Source: Candidatus Eiseniibacteriota bacterium (GTDB lineage Bacteria; Eisenbacteria; RBG-16-71-46; CAIMUX01; VGJL01). From it: 64,000 nt of DNA. Below the pieces are notes generated by a model. The model was not told where the DNA came from, did no database searches, and saw only the letters and a program-made list of their open reading frames with translations. Below, piece by piece: positions 39,346 to 54,881 of this stretch. Where the stretch lies: assembly GCA_963792585.1 (NCBI GenBank), contig CAWBWI010000001.1, positions 672,001 through 736,000 of the forward strand. Direction: 5' to 3'. A program made the translations under genes and the position numbers. Position 1 is the stretch's first letter. Every line of letters begins with the position of its first letter.

Positions 39346-40326
39346 TCAGGCCCGCGGGAACTCGGGCGAGCCGCCGGGCCGCCGAGCGATGGCGAGCTTC
39401 GCGTCCTCGGCGTATTCGGGGGGCACGCAGACGCGAACCTCGCCGAGCCCGTCCATCGTGAGGCCCATGACGGGGCCCGCGCTCTCGTAATCGAGATCGA
39501 CCGGGAAACCTTCTGCCTCGAGGTATCCCTTGACGATCTCCGCCTCCGCCATGCCCGATGCCCTGTAGACGACTTCCATGCCTTCCATCGCCGTTCCTTC
39601 CACCTCGAGGAGTGCCTCGAGGAAACGCCGCCGCGCCGCTGCGGCGTGCGGGTTGCGTCTCTCGATGTCGATGAACAGCTGGAGCGAATCCCCCGTGACA
39701 TATCGGAGGATCTCGAGGAGTCGCGTGTACCCGGTCGTTGCGAGGGGACGGGGGGATGCCCCGAGCCGCTCGAGCGCACGCCCGATCCACATCACGAGCG
39801 CCTGCGTCTCCGCGATCTCCCGGTCGTGCGCATCCGGCGTCATCACGATCGTTTCGAGCCCCAGACGCTCGAGGAATCGACGGGTGAGGCGGGGCCTCCC
39901 CCCGCGCAGCGGGCAGATGACGATCGTGTGGCCCACGAGCCCGCCTGACGCGCTGTCGGGGCCGAATAGGGGATGCGTGGCCATGCAGTCGATTTCCGCG
40001 GGAACCTCCTCGAGGAGGATGGCCGCCGGCTCCACCTTCACGCTGCAGGTGTCGATCACGACGGTCGGGGGACGAAGGTGGGGCGCGAGATCACGCACGC
40101 ACTCTCGCAGCCGACCGATGGGGGGCGAGAGAACCACGTGGCGCGCACGGGCAGCTTGGCGGTGCGAGACCAACTCCACGTCAAGCTCCGTGGCATCCGC
40201 GCGCACGTCGCGGGCATCGCAGACGACTGTTTTCCCGTGATTGCGCAGGGTGGCGGCCGCGAGACGTCCGAAGCGTCCCAGGCCGACCACGGCGAACTCG
40301 GGTCGACTCAGCTCTGCCGTACCCAC
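39346..40326 (-). CDS. prephenate/arogenate dehydrogenase (TyrA-like) in frame with a C-terminal DUF2007-like domain
   Basis: GLGRFG Rossmann motif, DTCSVK, THPLFGP, HDR..A.TQ; then AEIVKGYLEAEG...GEVRVCVP; GTG start preceded by GGAG. Confidence 0.8.
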   Translation of the reverse strand: MGTAELSRPEFAVVGLGRFGRLAAATLRNHGKTVVCDARDVRADATELDVELVSHRQAARARHVVLSPPIGRLRECVRDLAPHLRPPTVVIDTCSVKVEPAAILLEEVPAEIDCMATHPLFGPDSASGGLVGHTIVICPLRGGRPRLTRRFLERLGLETIVMTPDAHDREIAETQALVMWIGRALERLGASPRPLATTGYTRLLEILRYVTGDSLQLFIDIERRNPHAAAARRRFLEALLEVEGTAMEGMEVVYRASGMAEAEIVKGYLEAEGFPVDLDYESAGPVMGLTMDGLGEVRVCVPPEYAEDAKLAIARRPGGSPEFPRA

Positions 40327-41570
40327 CGCAGGATCTCCGGCAGGGTCGCCCGCTTGCCGTACATCAGGATCCCCACCCGGAAGATGCGGGCCGCCACGGC
40401 CGCGAACCCGATGATCGACAGCACCAGAATTCCCAGCGAGGTGGCGATTTGCCAGACAGGGGGCGTGTGGAGGTTGATGCGGACCAGCATGATGATCGGG
40501 GAGAAGAAGGGGATCATCGAGTAGACGACGCTCATCGTGCCATCCGGATCGCGCAGGACCTGCATCATCAGGATGATCGGTATGACGATCAACATCGTGA
40601 CCGGCCACTGCATCTGCTGAGCCTCCTGGTCCGTGGTGACCATCGCTCCGACGGCCGCATAGATTGCCGCGTAGAGCAGGAAGCCGAGCACGAAGTAGAT
40701 CACGAAGAAGCCGATGGTCAGGGGCGCCAGGGCGGCTACGTCGGCGAGGGCGGGAGTGGTGGCCTTGAGGTACGCGGCCCCGCCGATGGCGACCACCGCC
40801 CAGACCGCGTACTGGGTCAGGCCGACGCCGCCGACGCCGAGAATCTTGCCGAGCATCAGCTGGAAGGGCTTCGTAGTGGACAGAAGGATCTCCACGATGC
40901 GGGAGGTCTTGTCCTCGAGGACGCTCCGCTGCACCGCCATGCCGTAGAGCAGGACGGTCATGTAGATGATCATCGCGAAGACATAGGAGGTGATGAAGTC
41001 AGACTCGATCCCTCCCTCGCGCGCCCCCTCCTCGGTCAGCTTGAAGAGCTTGAAGGAGACCGCCTTGGAAATCGCCTTGGTCTCGTCGACCGAGATCCCG
41101 CGCACTTCGAGACGGCTCATCATGGCGGCACGCGACAGAGCGTCCCGAAAGCGACCCAGCATCTCCATGTCGCTCGCCCCCCGCGCGAAGACCTCCGCCG
41201 TACCGCCCTCGAGCGCGTCGGCCGGAATCCACAGAAGTCCCGTGTAGCTTCCCGCCAGCACTTGTTTCTGGAGCTCCTCGCGCGACCGGGCCACGCCTGC
41301 GTCCATCGGTTGCTGCCACTCGAACGTGAACCTGCGACTGCCGTCGGGCATCGTGTCGGGGAGGACACTCTCGAGCTTTCCCCCGAGGACTCCGGTCCCG
41401 TCGACCGCCAGCATGTGCATCGGCCGGCCGGTCGAGCGGGACGCCAGCCAGATCGGGACGAACGTCACCCCGAGCATGAAGACCGGAACCAGGATCGTGC
41501 TGATGAGGAAGGAGCGTTGCCGGACGCGCTCGAAGTACTCGCGCTTGAGAATGGTTCCCGTGCTGTTCAT
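40308..41570 (-). CDS. ABC-2 type exporter permease (NatB-like)
   Basis: EDKTSRIVEILLS, GKILGVG, FVLGFLLYAAIYAAVGA, IFRVGILMYGK. Confidence 0.9.
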   Translation of the reverse strand: MNSTGTILKREYFERVRQRSFLISTILVPVFMLGVTFVPIWLASRSTGRPMHMLAVDGTGVLGGKLESVLPDTMPDGSRRFTFEWQQPMDAGVARSREELQKQVLAGSYTGLLWIPADALEGGTAEVFARGASDMEMLGRFRDALSRAAMMSRLEVRGISVDETKAISKAVSFKLFKLTEEGAREGGIESDFITSYVFAMIIYMTVLLYGMAVQRSVLEDKTSRIVEILLSTTKPFQLMLGKILGVGGVGLTQYAVWAVVAIGGAAYLKATTPALADVAALAPLTIGFFVIYFVLGFLLYAAIYAAVGAMVTTDQEAQQMQWPVTMLIVIPIILMMQVLRDPDGTMSVVYSMIPFFSPIIMLVRINLHTPPVWQIATSLGILVLSIIGFAAVAARIFRVGILMYGKRATLPEILRWVRQS

Positions 41571-42466
41571 CGCGTTCCCTCCACCAGGCGGATGAATATC
41601 TCCTCGAGCGACGCCTCGCTCGTGTCGAAGCGACGGACTTCCACGGCATCGACGAGCCGGCGCAGGAGCACGCCGGCATCCTCGGGTCGACGCAAACGCA
41701 TCTCGGCGTAACGACCGTGGTCATCGAGCTTCTCCAGGAGGTCGAGGATCCCCTCGCGGGGAAGCTGCCCCGCGTATTCCACTTTCACCGTGCCCGTGCC
41801 GTGCTCCTGGCGGATCTTGTCCAGCGGACCCTGGATCACCACGCGTCCCTGGTGGATCAGGCAGATCCGATCGCAGCTCTTCTCCACCTGATCCATCTGG
41901 TGTGTGGAGAAGATCACGGTGGCCCCCCGGTCGCGCATCTCGAGCATCACGTCCTTCATCAGACGGGAATTGACGGGATCGAGCCCGGAGAAGGGTTCGT
42001 CGAGAATGATGAGGGCGGGGTCGTGCAAGATCGTTCCGATGAACTGAACCTTCTGCTGCATTCCCTTCGACAGCTCCTGAACCTTGCGTTTCGACCACTC
42101 GGGAACCTCGAACCTCTCGAGCCATGCGCGCGCGCGCCGGCGCGCTTCCGTCGCGGCGAGCCCGTGCAGTTCTCCGAAGAACACGAGGTGATCCTCGACC
42201 CGCATGCCTCTGTAGAGTCCTCGCTCCTCGGGCAGGAAGCCGATACGCATCATGCCCGCCTCGTCCAGTTCTCGGCCGAGGACGGTGATCGTTCCTTCGT
42301 CCGGGAGCAGGATCTTGAGGATCATGCGGATCGTCGTGGTCTTGCCGGACCCGTTGGGCCCCAGAAGCCCGAATATGGAACCCTCGGGCACATCGAAGCT
42401 CAGCCGATCGACCGCCCGTTGGGAAGCGAAGGTCTTCGAGACCTCCCGGATCGATATTGCATTCAT
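41567..42466 (-). CDS. ABC exporter ATP-binding protein
   Basis: GPNGSGKTT, LSKGMQQK, ILDEPFSGLD. Confidence 0.95.
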   Translation of the reverse strand: MNAISIREVSKTFASQRAVDRLSFDVPEGSIFGLLGPNGSGKTTTIRMILKILLPDEGTITVLGRELDEAGMMRIGFLPEERGLYRGMRVEDHLVFFGELHGLAATEARRRARAWLERFEVPEWSKRKVQELSKGMQQKVQFIGTILHDPALIILDEPFSGLDPVNSRLMKDVMLEMRDRGATVIFSTHQMDQVEKSCDRICLIHQGRVVIQGPLDKIRQEHGTGTVKVEYAGQLPREGILDLLEKLDDHGRYAEMRLRRPEDAGVLLRRLVDAVEVRRFDTSEASLEEIFIRLVEGTR

Positions 42467-42659
42467 GCGCGCCCCTCCGTTTCCGCGGGATGATACGCAG
42501 TCGCCCAGCGCGACGCCACGCCGGATCCGCCGATGCTATACTGCGGCTCGAGCGAGAGGAGCGGAATTGGACCTCGACGAGACCGGCGCTGCAGGATCAC
42601 CTCCCCGGGGATCGGCAGGCGGAGGATCGGTTCCTTCGCCGGTCCCTGCGGGGCGTAGG

Positions 42660-43448
42660 ATGCGCCCCTTCCTGGTTCCAGGCGCCCTCTTCCTGCTGAC
42701 CGTCATCACGACCACGCTCGCGAATGGTCCTTTCTACGCCGCCTGTCTGCTCGGGATCCTCGTCGTGCACGAGGGAGGTCACTACCTCATGTGCCGGCGG
42801 TATCACGTGCCGTCGACGCTTCCCTACTTCATTCCCCTCCCGCCGATGATCTCGTTTCTCGGGACTCTCGGCGCCGTGATTCGCATGCGTCTGATGACGG
42901 GGGATCGGAAGATCCTCTACGACATCGGCATCGCCGGCCCCCTGGCGGGCCTCTGCGTCGCGGTTCCGGTGAGTTGCTGGGGGCTCGCGCACTCCAGGCT
43001 CGTGACGAAGCCCCCCCCGGGAACTTCGATCGAGCTGGGCGACTCGTTGCTCTTCCATTTCCTTCAACGCGTCTTCTTCGGCCCTGTGGGGCCTGGACAG
43101 GATCTGCTGCTCCATCCGGTCGCTCTGGCGGGATGGGCGGGCCTGTTCGTCACTGGGCTCAACCTGATCCCCGTCGGGATGCTCGACGGCGGACACGTCG
43201 TCTACGGTCTGCTGGGGCGCAAGGCTCTCTGGGTGAACATCGCCGCGATGGCGGGAATCGCGGTGCTCGGCGTGACCTTCTTCCCATTCTGGCTAGGATG
43301 GTTCGTGCTGCTCCTGATCATCGGCATCCGTCATCCGGCCTCCGCGCTCCCCAGCGGGACCATCGACCGTCGAAGGCTGCTGCTGGGGGTGGCCACGCTC
43401 GTTCTCTTCGCCCTCTGCTTCGTGCCTCGTCCCGTCCGCATTCCATGA
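42660..43448 (+). CDS. site-2 protease (peptidase M50)
   Basis: HEGGH, GIAGPLAG, NLIPVGMLDGGH; multiple TMs. Confidence 0.92.
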   Translation: MRPFLVPGALFLLTVITTTLANGPFYAACLLGILVVHEGGHYLMCRRYHVPSTLPYFIPLPPMISFLGTLGAVIRMRLMTGDRKILYDIGIAGPLAGLCVAVPVSCWGLAHSRLVTKPPPGTSIELGDSLLFHFLQRVFFGPVGPGQDLLLHPVALAGWAGLFVTGLNLIPVGMLDGGHVVYGLLGRKALWVNIAAMAGIAVLGVTFFPFWLGWFVLLLIIGIRHPASALPSGTIDRRRLLLGVATLVLFALCFVPRPVRIP

Positions 43449-45244: not shown

Positions 45245-45290
45245 TGTCCCGCTACCGACCGGTTCCTGCGACATAGCGTGTAACCAAGAC

Positions 45291-45319
45291 TTGACACATT
45301 CTAGACATCCGTCTATTCT
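45291..45319 (+). promoter_or_regulatory. sigma70 promoter of the FG-GAP/kinase-TPR/bEBP operon
   Basis: TTGACA-N17-TATTCT, near consensus. Confidence 0.8.
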
Positions 45320-45390
45320 GTTCTCGCAACAGCTTTCGGGGCAAAGGATCCGCGCCCCCGGGAATTTCGTGTTTGACCAGGAGGTCTCGC

Positions 45391-47088
45391 GTGTCTCGAC
45401 TTGCGCCGTTTGGCTTGCTCTGCACCCTGCTCGCCCTCGCTTCCTCCTCCATCGCCGTGATTCCGCTACCGACCACTCCCGACTGGGAGTCGACGCCGAA
45501 CGGCCAGTATGGGACCGGTCTCGGCGTCGGCGACCTGAACGGGGACGGGTGGGTCGACCTGGTCGTCGCCAACGGAAACGACATGGCCCGGCAGCGCGTC
45601 ACCGTCTATCTGAATAGCGGGGCCGGGAGCTATCCGGTCGCCCCGAACTGGTCGTCCGCGGATATCGACTATCACGGGCACCTGGACCTCGCCGATGTCG
45701 ACGGGGACGGATTCCTCGACTGCGCCGTCGCCGTCTATCTCGGTGCGGGAGGGTTCGGCACGAAGGGAAGAGTCAAACTCTACCGAGGAGCGGGAGACGG
45801 CACCTTCAGCGCCAATCCCGTCTGGCAGTCAGCGGACACATTCTATTGTTTCTCCCTGGCGTTCGGGGACATCAACATGGACGGTCGTCCGGACCTCGCC
45901 TGCGCAACCGGCGACGACTACAACAACAACGCGGAGAGGCGACGCGTCTACAGGAACCTTGGCGCGACGTTGGAAACCAGTCCTTCCTGGATGTCGACCG
46001 AGAACGAATACTCGCTCGACGCCACCTGGGCCGACTTCAACAATGACGGCTACCTCGATCTCGCATTCGCCGGGACCTCGTGTCCGAACAGAATCTACTT
46101 CTCCCAGGGGGGGATCCTCCAAACGACGGCGGGCTGGAGTTCCTCGGACGCCTCGATCTACGCCAATACGGCTGCCACAGGAGACGTAGACGGCGACGGT
46201 TGGACCGACCTTGCGATCGCCGACAACAACCAGCTCGGCGGATCCGGTCGTTTCAAGTTGTACCGAAACCAAGGCAACGGAACGCTTGCCACCCAGCCGA
46301 CATGGCAATCGGTCCAGGCGGGCTACGGATCTCAGGTCTCTCTGATCGATGTCGACGAGGATGGTGATCTCGACCTGTCCACGGGGATGTGGTGGGGCCC
46401 GGTCCGGATCTACGAGAACCAGGGTGGGACCCTCACCGTGAACCCCACCTACAGCTCGGCGACGAGTTCCGTGATCGAAAACGAGGTGTGGGAGGATGTC
46501 GACAACGACGGTCTGCAGCGCGGCCTCGGCGCCAGCTGGACGGGGGACGGGACCCGCAAGCTCTTCTACTTCCCGACTCGACCGGTCCGACAAGTCCTGT
46601 CGATGACCGTCGGGGATCTCAGCGTGCCGGTATCGAGCCTTCTACTCGACGCGGACGACGCCTGGGTTGTGCTGCCATCCGCCCCGTCGACAGGCGCCGT
46701 CGTTCGCGCATCCTATGTCAGCTCCGCGGATGTGGATCTCGCCCTCTCGAACTGGGACACCAGTGAGGGAGAGTATCTCTTCCGCAATCTCCGCAATCCC
46801 TCGGCCACCCCCGAGCCGCTCGCGGGCGCGATCCGTCTGATCCTCTCGCCGAACCCCTCGCGGGGCACACTCCGTCTCCGTCTCGAAGACCAGAACTCCG
46901 CCGCGCCGGGAGAGATTGAGATCTTCGATCCGGCCGGCCGCCGGGTCCGTGTCCTGGCGGGGATGTCGACGGAAGGCGTGTGGGATGGGCGGGACGCATC
47001 CGGTAGATCCGTTCCAAGCGGCGTCTACTTCATCCGCTGGACGCGGGGTTCCGGTGCCTCGGTTACCGGACAAGTGATCCGCGAATGA
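45391..47088 (+). CDS. secreted FG-GAP (VCBS) repeat protein with C-terminal FlgD-Ig/T9SS-like domain
   Basis: Signal peptide; repeated GDxxGDGxxDL motifs; C-terminus PNPSRG..IFDPAGRRVR..WDGRDASGRSVPSGVYFIR; RBS AGGAGG before GTG. Confidence 0.88.
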   Translation: MSRLAPFGLLCTLLALASSSIAVIPLPTTPDWESTPNGQYGTGLGVGDLNGDGWVDLVVANGNDMARQRVTVYLNSGAGSYPVAPNWSSADIDYHGHLDLADVDGDGFLDCAVAVYLGAGGFGTKGRVKLYRGAGDGTFSANPVWQSADTFYCFSLAFGDINMDGRPDLACATGDDYNNNAERRRVYRNLGATLETSPSWMSTENEYSLDATWADFNNDGYLDLAFAGTSCPNRIYFSQGGILQTTAGWSSSDASIYANTAATGDVDGDGWTDLAIADNNQLGGSGRFKLYRNQGNGTLATQPTWQSVQAGYGSQVSLIDVDEDGDLDLSTGMWWGPVRIYENQGGTLTVNPTYSSATSSVIENEVWEDVDNDGLQRGLGASWTGDGTRKLFYFPTRPVRQVLSMTVGDLSVPVSSLLLDADDAWVVLPSAPSTGAVVRASYVSSADVDLALSNWDTSEGEYLFRNLRNPSATPEPLAGAIRLILSPNPSRGTLRLRLEDQNSAAPGEIEIFDPAGRRVRVLAGMSTEGVWDGRDASGRSVPSGVYFIRWTRGSGASVTGQVIRE

Positions 47089-50000
47089 GCACGCGCACGC
47101 CAGGGCGGACCGAGAAGCGTTGGGGTCCGTTCGATTGCATCGCCCTGGTCCACCAGGCTCTGGATCGCGGTCTGTGGCAGGTCCGGAATGCTCGCAATGG
47201 TCACACGGAGATCCTGAAGCTTGCCCCGCCCGAGGCATCGGAGGAGGCTCGGCGCGCCCTCGCGGAGGAATTCCTACTCCTGGACCGGATCCATCACCCA
47301 CACTGGGTGCGACCCATCGGCTTTATTCACCTCGACGACGGCTCGAGCGGATATCGGATGGAGGACGCGGGGACACCCGTGTCCGAAGGCGCCGGCGATG
47401 GTTGGCTTCCTCGAGATCTCGGCGCCGTGCGTGAGTTGCTGGGTGCTCTGGCCTGTCTGCATGCGCTCGGTTACGTCCACCTCGACATCAAGCCGTCCCA
47501 ACTCCTGCAAAGCCCCGGCGGAGTGAAGCTGATCGATCCGGGTCTAGCCGCGGTGGAAGGATCCGCACTGGCGGCGAGGGGAACGTGGGGCTTCATCGCA
47601 CCCGAGGTTCTGCGCGACGCTCCTTGGGATCGACGCGCCGATTTCTACGCGCTCGGCTGCGTTCTCGTGGAGATCTGGACAGGAGAGAATCCACTCGGTG
47701 AGGGGGAGATCGCCGAGCAACTTCGCAGACAGCGAAGCCGACCCCGTCTGCGCCTGCGTGAGAGAGTGTCCGACGTTCCCGAGGGGCTCGATCGAGTCGT
47801 CGAGGCGCTGCTCGATCCAGACCCGGAGCGACGACCTCGAACGGCGCGCGAGGTCTGGACCTCATTGCACACCATGGCGGCCTACCGAGAGGGATACGCC
47901 GAGCGCAGGCGACTGCCCCAGCCACTCGACCTGCCGTTCCTGGGGGTGGAGGCGGTCGAGGCGGCCTGGGATCGCGCCCTGGAGGGCGGCGGGCCGGAGC
48001 GCTGGGTCATCACCGGACCCATCGGAAGCGGCAGGCGCCGATTGCTCGAGCGCCTGAGTGCGCGGTCCGAAGTGGCCGGGTTCTCTTGCGAGTCGCGGCC
48101 CGATGCGTTCATGGCCGTGCGCAAGGACCCATCGAGCGGCGCCTTGAGGGAGGTGCAGTGCCGCGTCGGGAAGCCCTCGCGGGGCGAGGAACGAATCGAG
48201 TTGGGCGCAGTCGGGGACCGCGCGGCCGCCGCCGCCCTCGAGGCGTACGGCCTCGAGGCCGAGGGGGACGAGGCGACTTGGACGCGCGTCCTGCTTCGAC
48301 TCCGTCTCCTGGAGCGCCTGGGAGCGGAGGCGGAGCGACGCAGGAGTGGCCGCGAGCGACGCGCCGTCGCGACTGCGGTTGGGGGCGCGATCGAGGACGC
48401 GGACCGCCTGCGACTGGGGAGATTGCTCGCCCGCGATGTCTCGGATCCACCTCTTCACGGCGCCTCGGGAGAGGCTCTCGTCAAGTGCGGCCTGGCCCGT
48501 GTGGATTCCGCGGGGAATCTCCAGGCAGCCTGCCCTCCTTGGGAGGAGATGTCGCTCGCCGTCGTGGTTGGCGAGGAGGCGCTGGCCGAGGCCCACCGCG
48601 CCTTCTTGGAGGAGGCCGGAGGCCGCCTCATCGCAGGGGCAGTTCATGCGCTCGGCTGCGGGGATACGGCGACGACACTCACCCAAGTGCTTCCCGCAGT
48701 GGCGCAGCTTCGGGAAGAAGGCGACCTCGGTCGCGCATTCGAACTCCTCGCCCGTTCGCGCGACCTGCTCGCGGCGGACTGGCCCGCCTCGTGGGCGATC
48801 GAGCATGCGTCCATTGCGCTGGAGGACGGGACGCCCGCTCGTGTGATGTCCCTCCTGGGACCGACGGGTCCCGCGCTTCCCGACGCGTGGCGGATGCTTC
48901 TCGAAGCCCATCTGCAGTACCGCTCCGGGCGACGGAGGGAAGCAATCGCCGCCGCGCGGGCGGCGCAGGAACGAACCGGCGATACCCGGATCGCGCGCGC
49001 AGCGGAGATGATCGTAATCCGCTCCCAGAACGCGCTCGGTGAGACGGAGGATGCGGAGGCGGGCGCGAGGAAGCTCCTCGAGCAAACGGCTCCTGATGCG
49101 CCGTTGATCGAACGTCTCCGTCCTGCTGCGCTGTTGTTGAGCATCCTCTCCTCCCATGGAGCATCCGAGGAGGCATGTGCCCCGCTGCGAGACCTGTGCG
49201 CAAGAAACCTGACCAGAGTAGGCGCGCGGGAACGGCACGAAGTCGCGGCCTCGCTCGGAACAGAGGCGTTCCAGCGGGGCGATTTCGCTGCGGCCGGGAC
49301 ATTCATGGAGATCGCCGTAGAGGCGGCTGCAAGCTGCCACGATCCAGCGAACCTGGCCATCGGCCAGATGAACCTGGCCGGAGTCTATTTCGAAGAAGGG
49401 CGCACGGCGGAATGCGAGGACCTGAATGGTCAGGCCTTGCGGGCCTGCGTGGCGGTTGGGATGGAAGTCCAGGCGGCTTACGCTCAGCGCAATCTCGGGA
49501 CAGTGATGCTCGCAACCGGACGGTTGGGGGAGGCACTGAATCTCTGCAGGAAGGCGCGGGAAGTACTCGGGGCAAATCCGGCGTCTCCGAATGCCCTCGC
49601 TGCTCTCGCCGTAGAGAGCGAGACCCTATTGGAAGCAGGGCTGTATGAATCTTCTCGAAGATCCCTTGGCGAGGCCATTGACCTCCTGGCAGCAAACCCG
49701 ATCCCGATGATCGCCACGGTCATCTGGCGCGACATGGCGCGCCTCGAGCGATGGACGGGTCAACTCGATAGGTCCGCAGACCTGCTGGATGAAGCAAGGC
49801 GCCAAGCGCGCGAATGCGGCGCCTCGGACGACGAAGCCAGGGCGCTCATCGAGATGGCAGCATTGCGCATCGCAGGTGGAGACTTGTGCGGGGGCGCGAG
49901 GTTTCTCGATGAAGCCGCCCCGATCGTCCGGGCTTCGACGAGCCTCGAGTTGGCCCTCCGTTTCGATTTCGCGCGTGCGATGCACTGCCGGGATGAGAAC

Positions 50001-50318
50001 GCCCAGGCCGCCGAATTGCTCGCCGCAGCGACCGCGCGGGCGGCGCGGGCCCATCTCGCCGGATGGCTCTGGCGCTGTTACGCGGCCGATGCGGGGATCG
50101 CGCGGTCCGCTGGGGACGGTGACCGTGTGCTTCGCTCCATCTATGCGGCCCGCCGAACGCTCCTCGACCTGCTGGACGGCATCGGGCCGGAGGCGATGCG
50201 GGAATCATACGTAATGCTTTGCGACAGCCGCCTGTTCCTCGCTTGGTGCGATGGGGATACGGGCACACGTGAGGAGCTCCCCCGCGGGGGCTCCGATTTG
50301 GAGGTATTTCTGCAATGA
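47085..50318 (+). CDS. Ser/Thr kinase-like domain + degenerate P-loop + TPR-like helical repeat protein
   Basis: HLDIKPSQ, IDPGLA, GTWGFIAPE, DFYALG; GPIGSGRR; C-terminal repeats such as SLGTEAFQRGDFAAA, NLAGVYFEEG, NLGTVMLATGRLGEA. Confidence 0.85.
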   Translation: MSTRTPGRTEKRWGPFDCIALVHQALDRGLWQVRNARNGHTEILKLAPPEASEEARRALAEEFLLLDRIHHPHWVRPIGFIHLDDGSSGYRMEDAGTPVSEGAGDGWLPRDLGAVRELLGALACLHALGYVHLDIKPSQLLQSPGGVKLIDPGLAAVEGSALAARGTWGFIAPEVLRDAPWDRRADFYALGCVLVEIWTGENPLGEGEIAEQLRRQRSRPRLRLRERVSDVPEGLDRVVEALLDPDPERRPRTAREVWTSLHTMAAYREGYAERRRLPQPLDLPFLGVEAVEAAWDRALEGGGPERWVITGPIGSGRRRLLERLSARSEVAGFSCESRPDAFMAVRKDPSSGALREVQCRVGKPSRGEERIELGAVGDRAAAAALEAYGLEAEGDEATWTRVLLRLRLLERLGAEAERRRSGRERRAVATAVGGAIEDADRLRLGRLLARDVSDPPLHGASGEALVKCGLARVDSAGNLQAACPPWEEMSLAVVVGEEALAEAHRAFLEEAGGRLIAGAVHALGCGDTATTLTQVLPAVAQLREEGDLGRAFELLARSRDLLAADWPASWAIEHASIALEDGTPARVMSLLGPTGPALPDAWRMLLEAHLQYRSGRRREAIAAARAAQERTGDTRIARAAEMIVIRSQNALGETEDAEAGARKLLEQTAPDAPLIERLRPAALLLSILSSHGASEEACAPLRDLCARNLTRVGARERHEVAASLGTEAFQRGDFAAAGTFMEIAVEAAASCHDPANLAIGQMNLAGVYFEEGRTAECEDLNGQALRACVAVGMEVQAAYAQRNLGTVMLATGRLGEALNLCRKAREVLGANPASPNALAALAVESETLLEAGLYESSRRSLGEAIDLLAANPIPMIATVIWRDMARLERWTGQLDRSADLLDEARRQARECGASDDEARALIEMAALRIAGGDLCGGARFLDEAAPIVRASTSLELALRFDFARAMHCRDENAQAAELLAAATARAARAHLAGWLWRCYAADAGIARSAGDGDRVLRSIYAARRTLLDLLDGIGPEAMRESYVMLCDSRLFLAWCDGDTGTREELPRGGSDLEVFLQ

Positions 50319-52042
50319 ACATTGAACCCGAGCCGGCGAGAGGATTACCGGATATCGATGGGGCCGATGAGCGCGGAGAGCAGAGGACGACGGCCCGACG
50401 GCAGCTGGACGGCCTCAACCGCGGCATGACCCTGGAGGAGAGGATTACTCTCCTCGCCCAGCAAGAGGAGTCGCGCAAGGAGTTGGAGCGGCTTGACCGT
50501 CTTGTCCAGGCGTACCACCGACTGGCGGCCGGTTCCCGAGCGCTCACCTCGATCCTGGACCTCGATGCCCTCTTGGCAGCGATCCTCAAGGAGGTCGTCA
50601 ACCTCACGAAAGTCGATCGCAGCTTCCTCCTGCTCGCCGATGCATCGGGCACGCTTCGGATCGAGAAAGGGTACGACAGGCAGTTGGGCGCCCTCGAGGC
50701 AGATGCCGTCAATTTGGTGAGCATGTCCACGGCAAGACGCTGCCTCACGGAATCGAAGCAGCTTTGGATCCACCACCCGCTGCAGCTGCCCGAGTTCCGC
50801 ATGCAGGGGAGCATCGCCGAACTCAAGCTGTCCGAGATCCTGTGCGCCCCGCTGGAGACTGCCGGCGGTCCGATCGGCGTTCTCTACCTTGACAGCCGGC
50901 GCGCCGACAGCCTCGTGCCGCCCGAGGAACGTGAAGTCCTGGGGGCGTTCGCGGCGCAGGCGGCCATCGCACTCGAGAATGCGAGACTTCACCGGGAGCT
51001 CATGGAGGCGCGAGCGGGCCTTGAACGCGAGAACCGAGACCTTCGGAGGACGGTTCCCGGCGCGACAGGAGTCGGGGCCATCCTGGGTCACAGCCGTGCA
51101 ATCGAAGAACTCCGCGACCGGATCGGCCTGGTGCAGGAGTCTCACTTCCCGGTCATGATCTTGGGTGAAACCGGAACGGGAAAGGACCTTGTTGCAAGGG
51201 CGATTCACAGCGGCGGCCTTCGGGCGGCGGCGCCGTTCTTGGCGGTTCATTGCGGGGCCCTCCCCGGAGAGCTGCTGGAGAGCGAGATGTTCGGCCACAA
51301 GAAAGGGTCCTTCACCGGGGCGCTCCAGGACAAGCAAGGCGTATTCGAGGCCGCGGACGGCGGCAGCCTCTTCCTCGACGAGATCGGGGAAATGCCGATG
51401 CAACTCCAGGTCAAGCTCCTGCGCGCCCTCGAGGACGGAGAGATCCGCAGAGTCGGAGAGAACCTTCCTCGGAAAGTCGACGTGCGGATCATCTCCGCGA
51501 CGAACCGCGATGTCGATGCGATGATCGCCGACAGCACTTTTCGCGACGACCTCTACTACAGGCTCAGGGTCGTCACCCTGCTGACTCCGCCCCTGCGGGA
51601 GCAGAAGGAGGACATCCTGTCTCTCGCCGAGCATTTCCTGCGCAGTTTGCTCGACGCCATCAACCGCCCCTACGCCGGGTTCACTCCGGCTGCCGCTCGG
51701 TTCCTCTTGGAACATCCGTGGCCCGGCAATGTCCGGGAGCTGCGAAACATGATCGAGGGCGCCTCCGTGTTCCTGAAGCCGGGTTCCCCGATGGACGCGG
51801 CGGACCTACAGCTCGCGGCCGGTGGCAGGCGGAATCCTACTCGGGCATCCGCGGTCCCTGCCGCAGGGGAGTCGAGCCTCCGCGACTTCCGCCAGGAAGC
51901 CGAAAGGCAGCTCGTGGTGGAGTCCTTGGAACGATCGAATTGGAACGTGAGTCGTGCCGCGAAGGACCTGGGGATCTCGCGCCAGCACCTTCACAACCGG
52001 ATCCGCTATTACGAGCTGGAGCGGCCGGAACGCCACGAGTAA
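50315..52042 (+). CDS. GAF-domain sigma54-dependent activator (bEBP)
   Basis: GAF; Walker A GETGTGKD, ESEMFGHKKGSFTGA, FLDEIGE, FRDDLYYRL, WPGNVREL, Fis-type HTH. Confidence 0.95.
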   Translation: MNIEPEPARGLPDIDGADERGEQRTTARRQLDGLNRGMTLEERITLLAQQEESRKELERLDRLVQAYHRLAAGSRALTSILDLDALLAAILKEVVNLTKVDRSFLLLADASGTLRIEKGYDRQLGALEADAVNLVSMSTARRCLTESKQLWIHHPLQLPEFRMQGSIAELKLSEILCAPLETAGGPIGVLYLDSRRADSLVPPEEREVLGAFAAQAAIALENARLHRELMEARAGLERENRDLRRTVPGATGVGAILGHSRAIEELRDRIGLVQESHFPVMILGETGTGKDLVARAIHSGGLRAAAPFLAVHCGALPGELLESEMFGHKKGSFTGALQDKQGVFEAADGGSLFLDEIGEMPMQLQVKLLRALEDGEIRRVGENLPRKVDVRIISATNRDVDAMIADSTFRDDLYYRLRVVTLLTPPLREQKEDILSLAEHFLRSLLDAINRPYAGFTPAAARFLLEHPWPGNVRELRNMIEGASVFLKPGSPMDAADLQLAAGGRRNPTRASAVPAAGESSLRDFRQEAERQLVVESLERSNWNVSRAAKDLGISRQHLHNRIRYYELERPERHE

Positions 52043-52070
52043 GTGTCACTGTAATACGACAGTGACACTT
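52041..52070. promoter_or_regulatory. palindromic enhancer-like site (putative bEBP UAS)
   Basis: Perfect 12-bp inverted repeat AAGTGTCACTGT-N6-ACAGTGACACTT containing two overlapping TGT-N12-ACA. Confidence 0.65.
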
Positions 52071-52266
52071 GACACTGTCGCGGGATGCCAACTCCTTATC
52101 ATATAAACGGTTGCCAGCAACAGCCACCGCGGAGTGTAAACAGCCGACTTCTCGCTGCGCAAACTGCCGCCACGGCGCTTCCGCTGCATCCCGCCGAGGA
52201 GCTTCGTAACAATAAACATTGTAGCTAGTTACGGGTTCGCATATTTCCTAACAGCCTTAGGGGAAT

Positions 52267-52283
52267 TTGGCACGCCCCCTGCT
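52267..52283 (+). promoter_or_regulatory. sigma54 promoter 1 (-24/-12)
   Basis: TTGGCACGCCCCCTGCT; GG at 52269-70 and GC at 52281-82 with exact N10 spacing. Confidence 0.8.
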
Positions 52284-52359
52284 CTACAGGAGGTCGGATG
52301 CGCGGAATGCGCATCTGAAGTGAGGCAAAGGCCTCGTGTCCAGGAAGGGGGTGAGTAGG

Positions 52360-52431
52360 ATGTTCGTAGGTGGTCTCGTGATCAGCTTCTTCTGGTTCCT
52401 TGCTCTGGCCATGGGCCGGGCTGGCTGGTAG
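52360..52431 (+). CDS. 23-aa hydrophobic peptide MFVGGLVISFFWFLALAMGRAGW (unannotated sORF)
   Basis: Strong SD (AAGGGGGTGA) upstream of ATG; downstream of the sigma54 promoter; followed by hairpins; below the ORF-track cutoff. Confidence 0.65.
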   Translation: MFVGGLVISFFWFLALAMGRAGW

Positions 52432-52506
52432 GCGGATGTAGCTCAACTCTCCCGTCCGGGCGTCGCGGCAGTGGCGGTCGGTCAGTGCGGGAGAAGAGAG
52501 CGCGGA

Positions 52507-52567
52507 GCGGCCTCAAACCTCGTCTGGGACAGCCCCAACCGGACGAGGGGGGAGGCCGCACCTTTGT
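52507..52567 (+). terminator. long GC hairpin closing the peptide transcript
   Basis: GCGGCCTC..CCTCGTCTGG-loop-CCGGACGAGG..GAGGCCGC followed by ACCTTTG. Confidence 0.5.
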
Positions 52568-52792
52568 ACCCGCCTGCTGACCCAATTTGGCGGAAATCGG
52601 CCCATGATGTTTAACCCACGGGTTGGCAATGGTTTGCGTCGCCCGATTCCCCTGGTACGCCGCGATTGGGGCGCTTCGACGCACCAAGTGGTTTCCCCGC
52701 GCGAATCCACTTGGTTCACGGATGCCCCGTAGTCATATGGCATGCAATGGGATAGAGAATGGTCAGCCAGGCTCTGCTCCGGGCAGATCAAC

Positions 52793-52808
52793 CTGGCACC
52801 GAACCTGC
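52793..52808 (+). promoter_or_regulatory. sigma54 promoter 2 (-24/-12)
   Basis: CTGGCACCGAACCTGC; GG-N10-GC, about 40 nt before the lipoprotein start. Confidence 0.72.
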
Positions 52809-52848
52809 CGTCACCTCCCGCAGGCATTCGCCTGGGGAGGAACCAGAC

Positions 52849-53308
52849 ATGAAGAACCATCGGTACCTGCTGATGCTCGTAGCGCTCCTGATGCTGGGGG
52901 CGGGATGTTCGAGCGACTCTGAATCGCCCCTCGCACCCGCGGTAGCTGTTCCGATGGGGGGCCCCGGGCTAGAATTTTCAGACCCGAGTCATCGGCCCCG
53001 ATGGAGGGTGCGTCGTCAACGGCGGAGTCCGCCTCGATATCCCGGCCGGGGCTCTCAGCGCCCCGACGATGATCGGGATCGAGTTGCTAGCGGACGGCTC
53101 CGTCGATCTCACGCCGAATGGCCAGCAGTTCGAGGTTCCGGTTTCTCTCACGTTCAACTTGGCCCCGGGTCAAGACCCACTTCACCGCGTGGTCGAGTGG
53201 TTCGATCCGGCCGGCGGATGGGTCGTGATTCCGAGCCTCGCGTCCGCGGGTCGCCGGGTTGCGCCTCTGATGCACTTCTCGATTTACCACATCGTCGCTT
53301 ACGAATAG
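52849..53308 (+). CDS. lipoprotein with ZU5-like domain (frameshift near 52955-52978)
   Basis: RBS GGGGAGG; lipobox LGAG-C; after a 1-nt shift IGPDGG..LDIPAGAL..LTPNGQQFEVPVSLTF..HFSIYHIVAYE*. Confidence 0.75.
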
Positions 53309-53436
53309 CCTGCTAGTCCTCCCTGCCCAAACACCGCGAGGCGGGCCGGGGTCATCCCCCGACCCGCTTCGGCCTTTTGGCCGCTTGTGGGGGCGGCGCT
53401 CTCATCCGTACGATCCGGCCCGGGAGTGGAGGTGCG

Positions 53437-54881
53437 ATGGACGCGTTGGGTGACATCCGACGGAGGGAGTGGAACGGGCTCGAGTCGGCTGCCGCGATTC
53501 CGCTCAAGAACCGCATCTATGTGAATCGCAACCTCCGGATGGCCCGCCTCGGTGCGATCGGGTTCGACATGGACCACACCCTCGCTATCTACGATCCCAT
53601 CCCCTTCGAGAGCCTCGCCTTCGAAGAGGCCAAGCGAAAGCTGCTCGCCGGGGGCTATCCGAGGACGATTGCGGATCTCCACTACCGTCCCGATTCGATG
53701 ATCCGCGGACCTGGTCGTTGACAAGCGGCGCGGCAACATCCTGAAGATGGATCAGCACCGCTACGTCGCGATGGCGTGCCACGGCTCCCGTCCTCTAGCC
53801 GACGAGGAGCGCAAGGGGATGTACCAAACCCGGTCCGTGAGCCTGTCGACGAAGCGATTCGTCGCCATAGACACGCCCTTCTCGCTGCCGGAGATCGACC
53901 TCTTCGCTCAGATGGTCGATCTGGTCGAGCGAGAGCGCTGGCGCCCGCGGGATTTCGCCAGGATGTATGTCGACGTCCGCGGCGCCATGGACCTTTCCCA
54001 TGCCGACGGCAGCATCAAGGAGAAGATCGCCGAGGACCCGGACCGCTACCTTCTCTTCGATCCTGAGTTGCCGGAAACCCTTCGCCGCTTTCGCGCCCAT
54101 GGCTATCGGCTCTTCGTCGACCAACTCGGGACCGGGCTACACGGCGCTCATCATGGAACGCCTGCTGCGCCGCGGTTCGACGTCGAATAGCCGTTGGACG
54201 GAGGCTTTCGATTGGATCGTTGTTCGCGCGGGCAAGCCCACCTTCTTCCGAAGGCGGGGAGAGTCGATCGCGACCCCGATGCCCCGTGTCACGCGCACTC
54301 GTGAGCGGGCGAAGGCGATTACCGGCGGGGGGGTCGCCGATCTGGAACACCGCTTGGGCTGCGGGGGAGACAGGATCCTCTACTTCGGCGACCACACATA
54401 CGGAGACATCATGAGATCCAAGCGCATACGGCTTTGGCGGACGGCGATGGTCCTCAAGGAGCTGGAGCGAGAGATCGAGGTCGGCGCAGCGCAGGTCGGA
54501 ATTCGAATGGAGGTGGCGTCCCTCAGTGCCCATCGGGAGAATCTGGAGTTCGTTCGAGACTATCTGGAGCGGATGGCACGTGGTGAAGTCGCTCCACGGA
54601 TGCCCGACATCCGCCGCCCCGAAGCGGCCCGTCTCCGCGGCCAACTGGATGCCGAGGTCGCCGAACTTGGCGCTAGGCTGGATGAACTCGAGACGGCCGA
54701 CCGCCGAGGCTACAACGAGACTTGGGGGCCGCTCTTTCGCACCGGGGCCGAGCTGAGTCACTTCGCCGGGCAGGTCCGTGACTTTGCATGCATCTATACC
54801 AGCCAGGTATCGAACTTGCTCCACTACCCCGTGGACAAGTACTTGCAGGCCCATCCCGAGCGAATGCCACACGAGATCTAG
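53437..54881 (+). CDS. HAD-IG (cN-II type) 5'-nucleotidase (frameshifts near 53710 and 54118)
   Basis: IYVNRNL, GFDMDHTL, TNS, AGKPTFF, YFGDHTYGDI, FACIYTS. Confidence 0.88.

Follow-up and report, generated by a model that had tools for sequence, protein, structure and literature searches.

Which product does a 23-codon open reading frame behind the gene of a sigma54 activator encode, and which protein reads this product? The question is raised by the region from 45,279 to 53,380 of a stretch of 64,000 nucleotides from a Candidatus Eiseniibacteriota bacterium (GenBank assembly GCA_963792585.1, contig CAWBWI010000001.1, positions 672,001 to 736,000). This whole stretch is called the window in the following; its genome is designated G000, and the families of its order f1 to f4. 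The genes, promoters and transcript of the region are located on the + strand. A first-pass annotation had proposed that a kinase protein with tetratricopeptide repeats (TPR) senses the processed 23-residue peptide and controls a bacterial enhancer-binding protein (bEBP), in the manner of the RRNPP quorum-sensing systems. The anatomy listed there, a sigma70 operon with ATGA couplings, a palindrome, AT-rich tracts, two -24/-12 boxes, a small open reading frame (sORF) with a Shine-Dalgarno sequence (SD) and hairpins, was found in place throughout. The conserved regulatory cassette formed by these elements is real and apparently undescribed. Its 23-residue product ends in GRAGW, and judging from the sequences compared, this motif is likely a ligand of MASE9 membrane sensors and at the same time an output of the sigma54 activator.

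The sORF (52360..52431), with its SD at 52345, codes for a microprotein of 23 amino acids, MFVGGLVISFFWFLALAMGRAGW, which forms a single hydrophobic helix (17-residue hydropathy 2.26) and has no charged n-region. Homologues comprise 16–29 amino acids; their motif codons vary synonymously, and their C-terminus reads G[RK]AGW. Four genomes of the same family show the same gene order and a hydrophobic peptide of 22–23 amino acids, which ends in GRAGW directly before the stop codon and is located 82–89 nt after the -24 box. Within the window's order, the microprotein was detected in 5 of 6 (f1), 12 of 13 (f2), the only (f4) and none of 15 (f3) genomes. Pattern matches that were out of frame or non-hydrophobic had been removed by translation or by eye, and the remaining records with an in-frame pattern and a hydrophobic leader were titled Candidatus Eisenbacteria or bacterium. 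Matches outside the Eisenbacteria were judged to be due to chance, two alphaproteobacterial ones (L067, L077) lying antisense inside a flagellar gene. Those in f3 were read in the same way; in G024, for example, a tandem repeat reads KGRAGW without a hydrophobic leader or a stop codon. On the strength of these sequence data, the 23-codon open reading frame is a real, conserved gene. Several genomes hold 2–4 microprotein copies, and no paralogous microprotein was found in G000. Tandem arrays of two to three copies are present beside a tRNA-synthetase gene in L038, L055 and L070, remote from the bEBP gene and with their own enhancer and -24 box. At L078 and L080 one copy is convergent with the gene of a second sigma54 activator (836–839 amino acids), adjoined by a conserved 114-aa gene.

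The first-pass annotation had placed this gene under a sigma54 promoter, which is borne out by the comparison of loci. The promoters P1 (52267..52283) and P2 (52793..52809) both follow the strict -24/-12 pattern, of which the 5.4-Mb genome has 19 occurrences in all; 526 bases separate the two. P2 is near-identical (TGGCAYCGAA.STGCC) in the four genomes of the same family. A YGGCAY box is present 57–123 nt upstream of the peptide at all 21 comparable loci (L039 was excluded, its contig ending 19 nt upstream), in comparison to 1 of 11 loci in the HD-GYP context described below. TGTCR-N4-14-YGACA occurs upstream at 12 of the 21 loci, mostly with an 8-nt spacer, versus a mean of 0.41 in 200 shuffles; the loci are mutually related and the motif was picked after viewing them, and these counts carry no formal probability. 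In the window, the predicted enhancer (upstream activating sequence) is TGTCA-N8-CGACA at 52044-52061, a TGT-N12-ACA site within a perfect 12-bp inverted repeat (52041..52070). The spacer that follows (52090..52252) contains two AT-rich tracts (38–39% GC versus 65%) and is a possible bend site for IHF, although its best matches to the IHF consensus have two mismatches. Peptide copies remote from the bEBP gene retain both box and enhancer (L038, L044, L055, L070, L078, L079). Genome-wide, TGTCR-N8-YGACA was not over-represented (14 sites versus 7–26 for other spacers), the promoter filter used having missed the known site, and no wider regulon of the bEBP beyond the cassette is claimed.

At 14 of 18 orthologous loci the peptide gene adjoins the bEBP gene; in the other four genomes it is located elsewhere, with a -24 box of its own. 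This proximity favours a loop close to the original proposal, in which the 23-residue peptide would be exported, trimmed to its C-terminal 5–6-mer, re-imported and bound by the TPR protein that controls the bEBP, but a peptide that is simply a target of the bEBP explains the adjacency as well. The region upstream (40308-43448) encodes an ABC-2 exporter as a pair of genes and, divergently, an M50 peptidase; they are reminiscent of PptAB and Eep and would also suit such a loop. As a pair of this type they were rejected, because the M50 gene does not track the peptide, being kept in 3 of 5 cassette-free f3 genomes and not found in two genomes that have the peptide. The exporter gave no match at four cassette-free loci.

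A different reader is suggested by the loci outside the window's order, at which the peptide sits between a conserved 250-aa gene and a gene encoding a MASE9-HD-GYP protein. Among 30 such loci, the motif G[RK]xGW was present at 26, a GGHAWW-type motif at two (one of them cut by the contig end) and no motif at the other two. Two microprotein precursors encoded before MASE9-HD-GYP genes carry three repeated cores, DGK[AG]GW in L133 (G067) and GGHAWW in L111 (G061), which suggests that the motif is the active unit. The 250-aa protein 5' of the peptide (L042, L073, L107-L136) has two domains, occurs in 61 of 81 genomes and has look-alikes in Gemmatimonadota; AGCGAAGCG is repeated in the spacer between its gene and the peptide.

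In the window's order, the HD-GYP locus has lost both the peptide and the HD-GYP gene (10 of 10 loci fetched, and G000 in addition), while a MASE9-type histidine kinase gene about 5 kb upstream has been kept. The departure of the peptide from this locus might be taken in favour of an RRNPP-like loop, as might the long TPR superhelix, which in the structure model resembles the peptide-binding repeats of LGN by fold. However, the distribution of the MASE9 kinase (6 of 6 f1, 12 of 13 f2, the only f4 and none of 15 f3 genomes) resembles that of the peptide. Between the same four genomes, the sensor domain of the MASE9 kinase is 42–54% identical and the TPR part 14–21%, whereas the peptide motif is unchanged; identities near 15–20% lie at the limit of alignment, and a conserved pocket in the TPR could be hidden, which speaks against too firm a reading of this difference. 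The motif does not vary with the TPR, whose co-variation with the peptide the first-pass annotation had proposed to test. Together with the other neighbours of the motif, which are MASE9 proteins, this makes an RRNPP-like sensing of the 23-residue peptide by the TPR protein distinctly unlikely. Two genes for MASE9-like membrane histidine kinases are present in G000, at C1:516523-518260 (L151, frameshifted in the assembly) and at C1:1791947-1793467 (L153).

The same motif was found on a second, unrelated carrier. Lipoproteins ending in HFS-x-Y-(0-7)-[RK][AS]GW-stop, homologues of the one in the window, are encoded in 87 of 206 genomes, none of them in f3; the reversed pattern had no match. G000 itself has two paralogues of the window's lipoprotein, L150 (C1:1635505-1636575) and L152 (C6:256002-256565), one of which ends in HFSTYRAGRSGW; the other, without HFS, ends in RYTAGWAGR and is preceded by a strict sigma54 box. 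A lipoprotein with a GW tail is encoded directly upstream at 8 of 12 secondary MASE9 loci (two of these being copies in one genome), and 18 of 58 GW tails lie within 2 kb of a match to PF20972 on the same strand; the 58 do not include the GW tail of G000, beside which no MASE9 protein is encoded. In a phylogenetic tree, the clade of MASE9 proteins encoded beside GW tails has the MASE9 kinases as its sister group (support 94/87) and is separate from the HD-GYP clade. That one motif is carried by two unrelated proteins, both neighbouring MASE9, is the chief reason for regarding GRAGW as a likely ligand of MASE9 rather than of the TPR protein. A complex prediction for a stand-alone MASE9 protein (G001) and the last 33 residues of the neighbouring GRAGW lipoprotein scored 0.30, 0.34 and 0.16 against a mark of 0.32, with controls not folded. 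In L157 (G169), L158 (G173) and other f18 genomes, a stand-alone MASE9 gene is flanked by lipoproteins ending in HFS..GKAGW, three of them consecutive at L158.

The presence of the motif at the end of two unrelated kinds of exported proteins could likewise mean that G[RK]AGW is a C-terminal tag for processing or sorting, for instance for modification of the Trp residue or for transfer to a membrane enzyme of the MASE9 type, and an output domain is indeed lacking in many of the neighbouring MASE9 proteins. Such a tag is nevertheless very unlikely: the output domains HD-GYP and histidine kinase occur in fusions with related MASE9 domains, the surroundings of the microprotein contain no conserved modifying enzyme, and the motif is at times internal (RAGWF, RAGWTS, RAGWGPGGP).

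A function of the RNA or of its translation was also considered. The region around the sORF, with leader and 3' hairpins (52441-52562), would give a structured transcript (52292..52580; RNA fold z = -4.9), in whose predicted fold the SD is paired with the coding region. Contigs from RNA libraries of three studies cover it in short, separate pieces (52267-52581, 52308-52568 and 52315-52499) and give a weak hint of transcription; they are low-share contigs that carry no information on level or strand and may derive from DNA. In these runs, 5–7 differences were counted in 261–315 nt of the region, while the lipoprotein gene had 54 over some 430 nt. The Rfam scan returned only rsmX, with 20.6 bits versus a cut-off of 56. 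CAGGA, presumably the CsrA consensus, occurs nine times in 21 leaders (52292-52360 of the window and homologous stretches) versus 2.25 times in shuffles, and CsrA is encoded in 5 of 5 genomes, so that Csr control is possible; GGA as such is not enriched in the leaders (33 versus 36). The fold, the conservation, the CAGGA sites and the RAG motif would all suit a ribosome-arrest leader or a peptide resembling type I toxins. Arrest peptides such as SecM and ApdA contain RAGP or RAPP, with Arg and an A-site Pro, and precede a coupled gene. In the microprotein, Trp takes the place of Pro, Lys replaces Arg in 18 of 35 copies from the HD-GYP context, and the downstream gene has its own promoter. As tandem copies and repeated cores exist and the motif is also found on lipoproteins encoded downstream of MASE9 genes, an arrest or RNA function is highly improbable.

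The gene behind P2 (52849..53308) encodes a stand-alone lipoprotein of about 152 amino acids with the lipobox LGAGC. Its description as ZU5-like in the first-pass annotation holds, with the correction that the gene is out of frame in the assembly. Since contigs of related strains in six runs are each one base shorter at 52968-52978, where the extra base is located, the frameshift is most likely an assembly error and the gene intact. An orthologue gave a weak match to Pfam ZU5 (E 0.0015) and belongs to a ZU5 cluster in the Atlas (0.96). The model of a paralogue from the same genome (pLDDT 84.5), with which the window's protein shares 31% identity over the aligned part, superimposes on ankyrin ZU5 (Z 12.4, rmsd 2.5, 116 residues aligned) and on the GAIN domain of CD97 (Z 9.8, rmsd 2.9, 118 residues aligned). 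In this model the last two strands (164-171 and 174-179) flank the turn F172-S173, to which the HFS of the window aligns. There, a predicted self-cleavage site HF|S is followed by a tail of nine residues, SIYHIVAYE (53273..53305), which had been overlooked at first. A contig of a related strain departs from the window after 53297, with in-frame D-V-D-stop in the place of AYE; the contig ends are loose and the reading is tentative.

Among 81 homologues from databases, Hx[ST] is present in 78 and a tail of at most 25 amino acids in 71. The lipoproteins at kinase-TPR loci never carry the GW motif (0 of 14), and their tails are variable. Of 40 further lipoprotein loci, which were not picked blind, 33 have W-type tails, of which 10 have MASE9 as a neighbour and 1 lies between a kinase and a sigma54 activator; 6 have other tails and 1 is cut off. 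None of the 6 lies beside MASE9; 3 are located directly 3' of a sigma54 activator gene, 2 of these together with a kinase-STAND-like gene. A TPR that changes quickly is better matched by a variable tail than by an invariant motif, and the non-GW class of tails, represented by SIYHIVAYE in the window, is therefore the better candidate for a TPR ligand. A peptide loop through the TPR protein thus remains plausible, though with the lipoprotein tail in the role that had been assigned to the 23-residue peptide. At L156, two lipoproteins with acidic tails are encoded behind a fused kinase-STAND-TPR-GAF-histidine kinase; a single-sequence search for further acidic-tail lipoproteins was too insensitive to extend the set. 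Further conserved tail classes of the family (P0021-P0091) are SRYAVAW, SRYMLASG, SGYLISSGR... and SEYGTT...GG, which suggests many signal types in other phyla.

It might also be that regulation stays within the envelope and no diffusible signal is formed. The kinase-TPR protein would then sense a cytoplasmic ligand, the microprotein would stay in the inner membrane as an accessory subunit of MASE9 sensors, and the lipoprotein would keep its tail and act as a decoy or surface protein. A peptide that is a single helix without a charged n-region fits this possibility, as do the loss of H-x-S in 6 of 14 linked lipoproteins, the lack of a dedicated exporter or protease that tracks the cassette, and the binding of MASE9 ligands within the membrane, proposed in the part of bioRxiv 10.1101/2021.11.05.467447 that was accessible. 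Purely internal regulation is still considered unlikely: the precursors with three cores (L133, L111) point to a detachable motif, the acidic variants of 16 residues span a membrane poorly, and the same motif directly follows a self-cleavage site in 87 genomes.

Upstream of the enhancer, the regulators are encoded in one operon behind a putative sigma70-like promoter (45291..45319; TTGACA-17-TATTCT, 10 of 12 consensus matches). The central protein (47085..50318; 1077 amino acids) is cytoplasmic, without predicted transmembrane segments, and comprises a kinase, a degenerate STAND-like NTPase and a long TPR part (TPR_12, E 2e-8), in agreement with its structure model of a kinase, a small alpha/beta domain and a long helical repeat. 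In the kinase, K45, E62, D134 and D151 are invariant in 15 of 15 homologues, while the Asn of the catalytic loop is replaced by Gln in the window and in most homologues, DPG takes the place of DFG and the Gly-rich loop is absent. The degenerate P-loop at 48015, not noticed in the first-pass annotation, has a Walker A motif of GPIGSGRRR without K[ST] and no evident Walker B, and the domain is shortened in f1. With neither an intact Walker motif pair (GxxxxGK[ST] for Walker A) nor the catalytic-loop Asn, the protein may function as a scaffold. The second regulator is the bEBP (50315..52042; 575 amino acids), which according to Pfam consists of GAF, sigma54 activator and Fis helix-turn-helix (HTH) domains. 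Its motifs are intact (GETGTGKD, GSFTGA as a variant of GAFTGA, LFLDE, FRDDLYYRL), so that Walker A and B, a GAFTGA-type loop, an arginine finger and an HTH are all present; rpoN, coding for sigma54, is encoded in the genome, and the enhancer and -24/-12 boxes provide a target.

That the kinase-TPR protein and the bEBP belong together, as first proposed, is corroborated by a single chain of 1745 amino acids in G036 (Pkinase-AAA_16-TPR_MalT-GAF-Sigma54-HTH). AAA_16 was also detected in the kinase-TPR homologue L049 (E 1e-9) and in other fused forms. As an f7 homologue still scores AAA_16 and G036 carries the whole chain in one protein, the two genes of the window are best interpreted as a sigma54 regulator of the STAND type that is both split and degenerate. 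The C-terminal sensor is of the MalT type in the close homologues P0001, P0003 and P0004 (PF17874, TPR_MalT), and the window's protein itself gave a weak match to MalT (E 0.005). A Foldseek search with the whole model listed generic TPRs and PknB-like kinases, with no STAND or RRNPP entry among the matches listed, and a search for related loci seeded with the kinase-TPR protein gave no match. Beside the two regulators, the operon encodes a secreted FG-GAP repeat protein with a FlgD-Ig-like C-terminal domain (45373..47088; FG-GAP_3, E 1e-41; FlgD_ig, E 5.5e-5), whose likely start is the GTG at 45391 with an SD at 45380; it is accessory, several related loci being without it. The genes are coupled by ATGA at 47085 and 50315, with GGAGG 9 nt 5' of the bEBP start.

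In G007, G014, G020 and G040, a nucleotidase gene directly follows either the M50 gene or an M50-GT2 pair; because the whole module is absent between them, it is, by gene order, a discrete cassette. The 5'-nucleotidase gene of the window (53437-54881) is broken into three frames. The break at 53709-53710 is most likely an assembly error, a base there being absent from related-strain contigs of four runs. In f2 and f4 (L025, L026, L028-L031, L087, L091), a gene for a T2SSE-family ATPase, usually with one for a DUF4388 protein, lies 3' of the cassette instead of the nucleotidase gene.

Taken as a chain, the proposed mechanism has four steps. First, the bEBP would bind TGTCR-N8-YGACA and activate P1 and P2, for which the evidence is strong. 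Second, and fairly strongly indicated, the kinase-TPR protein would control the bEBP by physical contact, which may be inferred from the halves of the fused family. Third, with moderate confidence, the C-terminal G[RK]AGW would be the ligand of MASE9: the microprotein from P1 would act on inner-membrane MASE9 sensors encoded elsewhere, here on the MASE9-type histidine kinase at G000:C1:516523, about 200 kb from the cassette. In a fourth step, for which the case is weaker, the lipoprotein from P2 would be cleaved at HF|S, and SIYHIVAYE would be released, imported and read by the TPR protein, closing the loop. The whole chain, in which a split STAND-type regulator drives a microprotein read by MASE9 and a self-cut lipoprotein tail as feedback to the TPR, falls somewhat short of an even chance; the first three steps alone are more likely than that. 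A wider form of the same idea is a two-channel peptide code that uses GAIN-like self-cleavage, in which G[RK]AGW, on a microprotein or as a tether cleaved off a lipoprotein, is read in trans by MASE9, variable tails are read by cytoplasmic kinase-STAND-TPR proteins, and a self-specific tail switches on the sigma54 activator that broadcasts the phylum-wide GRAGW. This form is tentative and, on balance, somewhat unlikely.

Several observations weigh against the proposed chain. Peptide, MASE9 kinase and cassette are all absent from f3, possibly through one event, and this distribution cannot separate the two receptors; moreover, the MASE9 kinase is without an adjacent peptide, and 40 of the 58 GW tails have no nearby PF20972 match. 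One GW-type tail (L168) has a sigma54 activator gene on one side and a kinase gene on the other, and the 40 further lipoprotein loci were not a blind choice. The peptide was found at 12 of 17 other kinase-TPR loci and the lipoprotein at 13 of the 17, and linkage alone does not favour the tail. Because 6 of 14 linked lipoproteins have lost H-x-S, self-cleavage cannot be essential at kinase-TPR loci. Release of the tail would, by analogy, need a trigger, as the cleavage products of MAIN domains stay associated, and binding, cleavage, export and import are all predictions from sequences and models here.

If the chain is correct, bacteria with two membranes have a form of peptide signalling that is so far undescribed, and peptide communication with a sigma54 output would reach into a diderm-type phylum. 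MASE9, an orphan among sensor domains, would have a candidate ligand in GRAGW. The motif, the cassette and a role of the lipoprotein family as a source of peptides were not found described in the literature, in which coverage of subscription journals was limited and the supplements on MAIN proteins (15,000 proteins) may list such lipoproteins. All parts of the cassette are small enough to be rebuilt in E. coli.

Among known systems, the RRNPP family (Rap, Rgg, NprR, PlcR, PrgX, AimR) resembles the window in that a small, hydrophobic peptide with a strong SD is encoded close to a cytoplasmic TPR protein and in that the output is transcriptional. According to the accessible part of PMC10075063, RRNPP propeptides comprise 10–100 amino acids and are secreted via Sec or, as SHP, via PptAB, and their receptors have TPRs and 250–500 amino acids and are encoded directly adjacent. 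The 23-residue microprotein with its SD and the TPRs of the putative receptor agree with this, but the receptor has 1077 amino acids and the bEBP gene intervenes in the window, so that receptor length and gene order depart from the RRNPP type there; in some relatives (L025, L028, L031, L049, L091) the two genes are directly adjacent. As regards secretion, the microprotein has a hydrophobic core, no charged n-region, acidic homologues of 16 amino acids and a nearby M50 gene that does not track it. Different from RRNPP systems are also the kinase and STAND-like parts of the receptor, the sigma54 output, a host with outer-membrane-type genes and a motif that does not vary with the TPR. Known RRNPP receptors were not among the matches listed in NCBIfam, Foldseek and PDB sequence searches, whose lists are full of generic TPRs.

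In MgrB-PhoQ and in the Agr and Com circuits, too, a short peptide acts on a membrane sensor. Here, another sensor family is concerned, one motif is found on two carriers, and a sigma54 promoter is under an unrelated regulator; an adjacent membrane kinase with a dedicated maturase, as in Agr and Com circuits, is not part of the cassette. The circuit of the window may resemble RRNPP or Agr circuits in its working, yet it is a member of neither.

The regulator comes closest to the MalT-type STAND proteins, with which it shares, as far as PMC4381067 was accessible, an NTPase-like domain with a MalT-like TPR sensor behind it, wired to a transcription activator. It differs from these and from the fused kinase-AAA_16-TPR-GAF-bEBP proteins in being split over two genes, in its degenerate Walker A motif and in a kinase without the catalytic-loop Asn. 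MASE9 (PF20972) is described, in the accessible part of bioRxiv 10.1101/2021.11.05.467447, as a membrane sensor fused to HD-GYP; that part names no ligand and does not mention a peptide. In the genomes compared here, MASE9 also occurs by itself or in fusion with a histidine kinase, and the G[RK]AGW peptide is its candidate ligand.

The lipoprotein, finally, shares with MAIN domains and the ZU5/GAIN superfamily (PMC3482391, seen in part) the ZU5/GAIN-type sandwich, by its paralogue's model, HFS in the turn that precedes the final strand, and export. MAIN domains cleave between F and S of HFS, and the proteins described have a mean size of 158 kDa, a C-terminal anchor and an N-terminal ectodomain that is shed, with no signalling known for the C-terminal fragment, as far as the accessible part of the preprint goes (bioRxiv 10.64898/2026.05.12.724683, Brogan and Rudner). 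The protein of the window has no large N-terminal ectodomain and no C-terminal surface anchor; it is a lone domain with an N-terminal lipid anchor and a short tail, and the free part would be a peptide of nine residues. The question posed by that preprint, whether signalling proceeds from the fragment behind an HF|S cut in bacteria, can be tested directly on this protein; the answer has a bearing on the origin of signalling by tethered agonists. In the two-channel reading, the GRAGW tether would act like the tethered agonist of adhesion G protein-coupled receptors, but split from its receptor.

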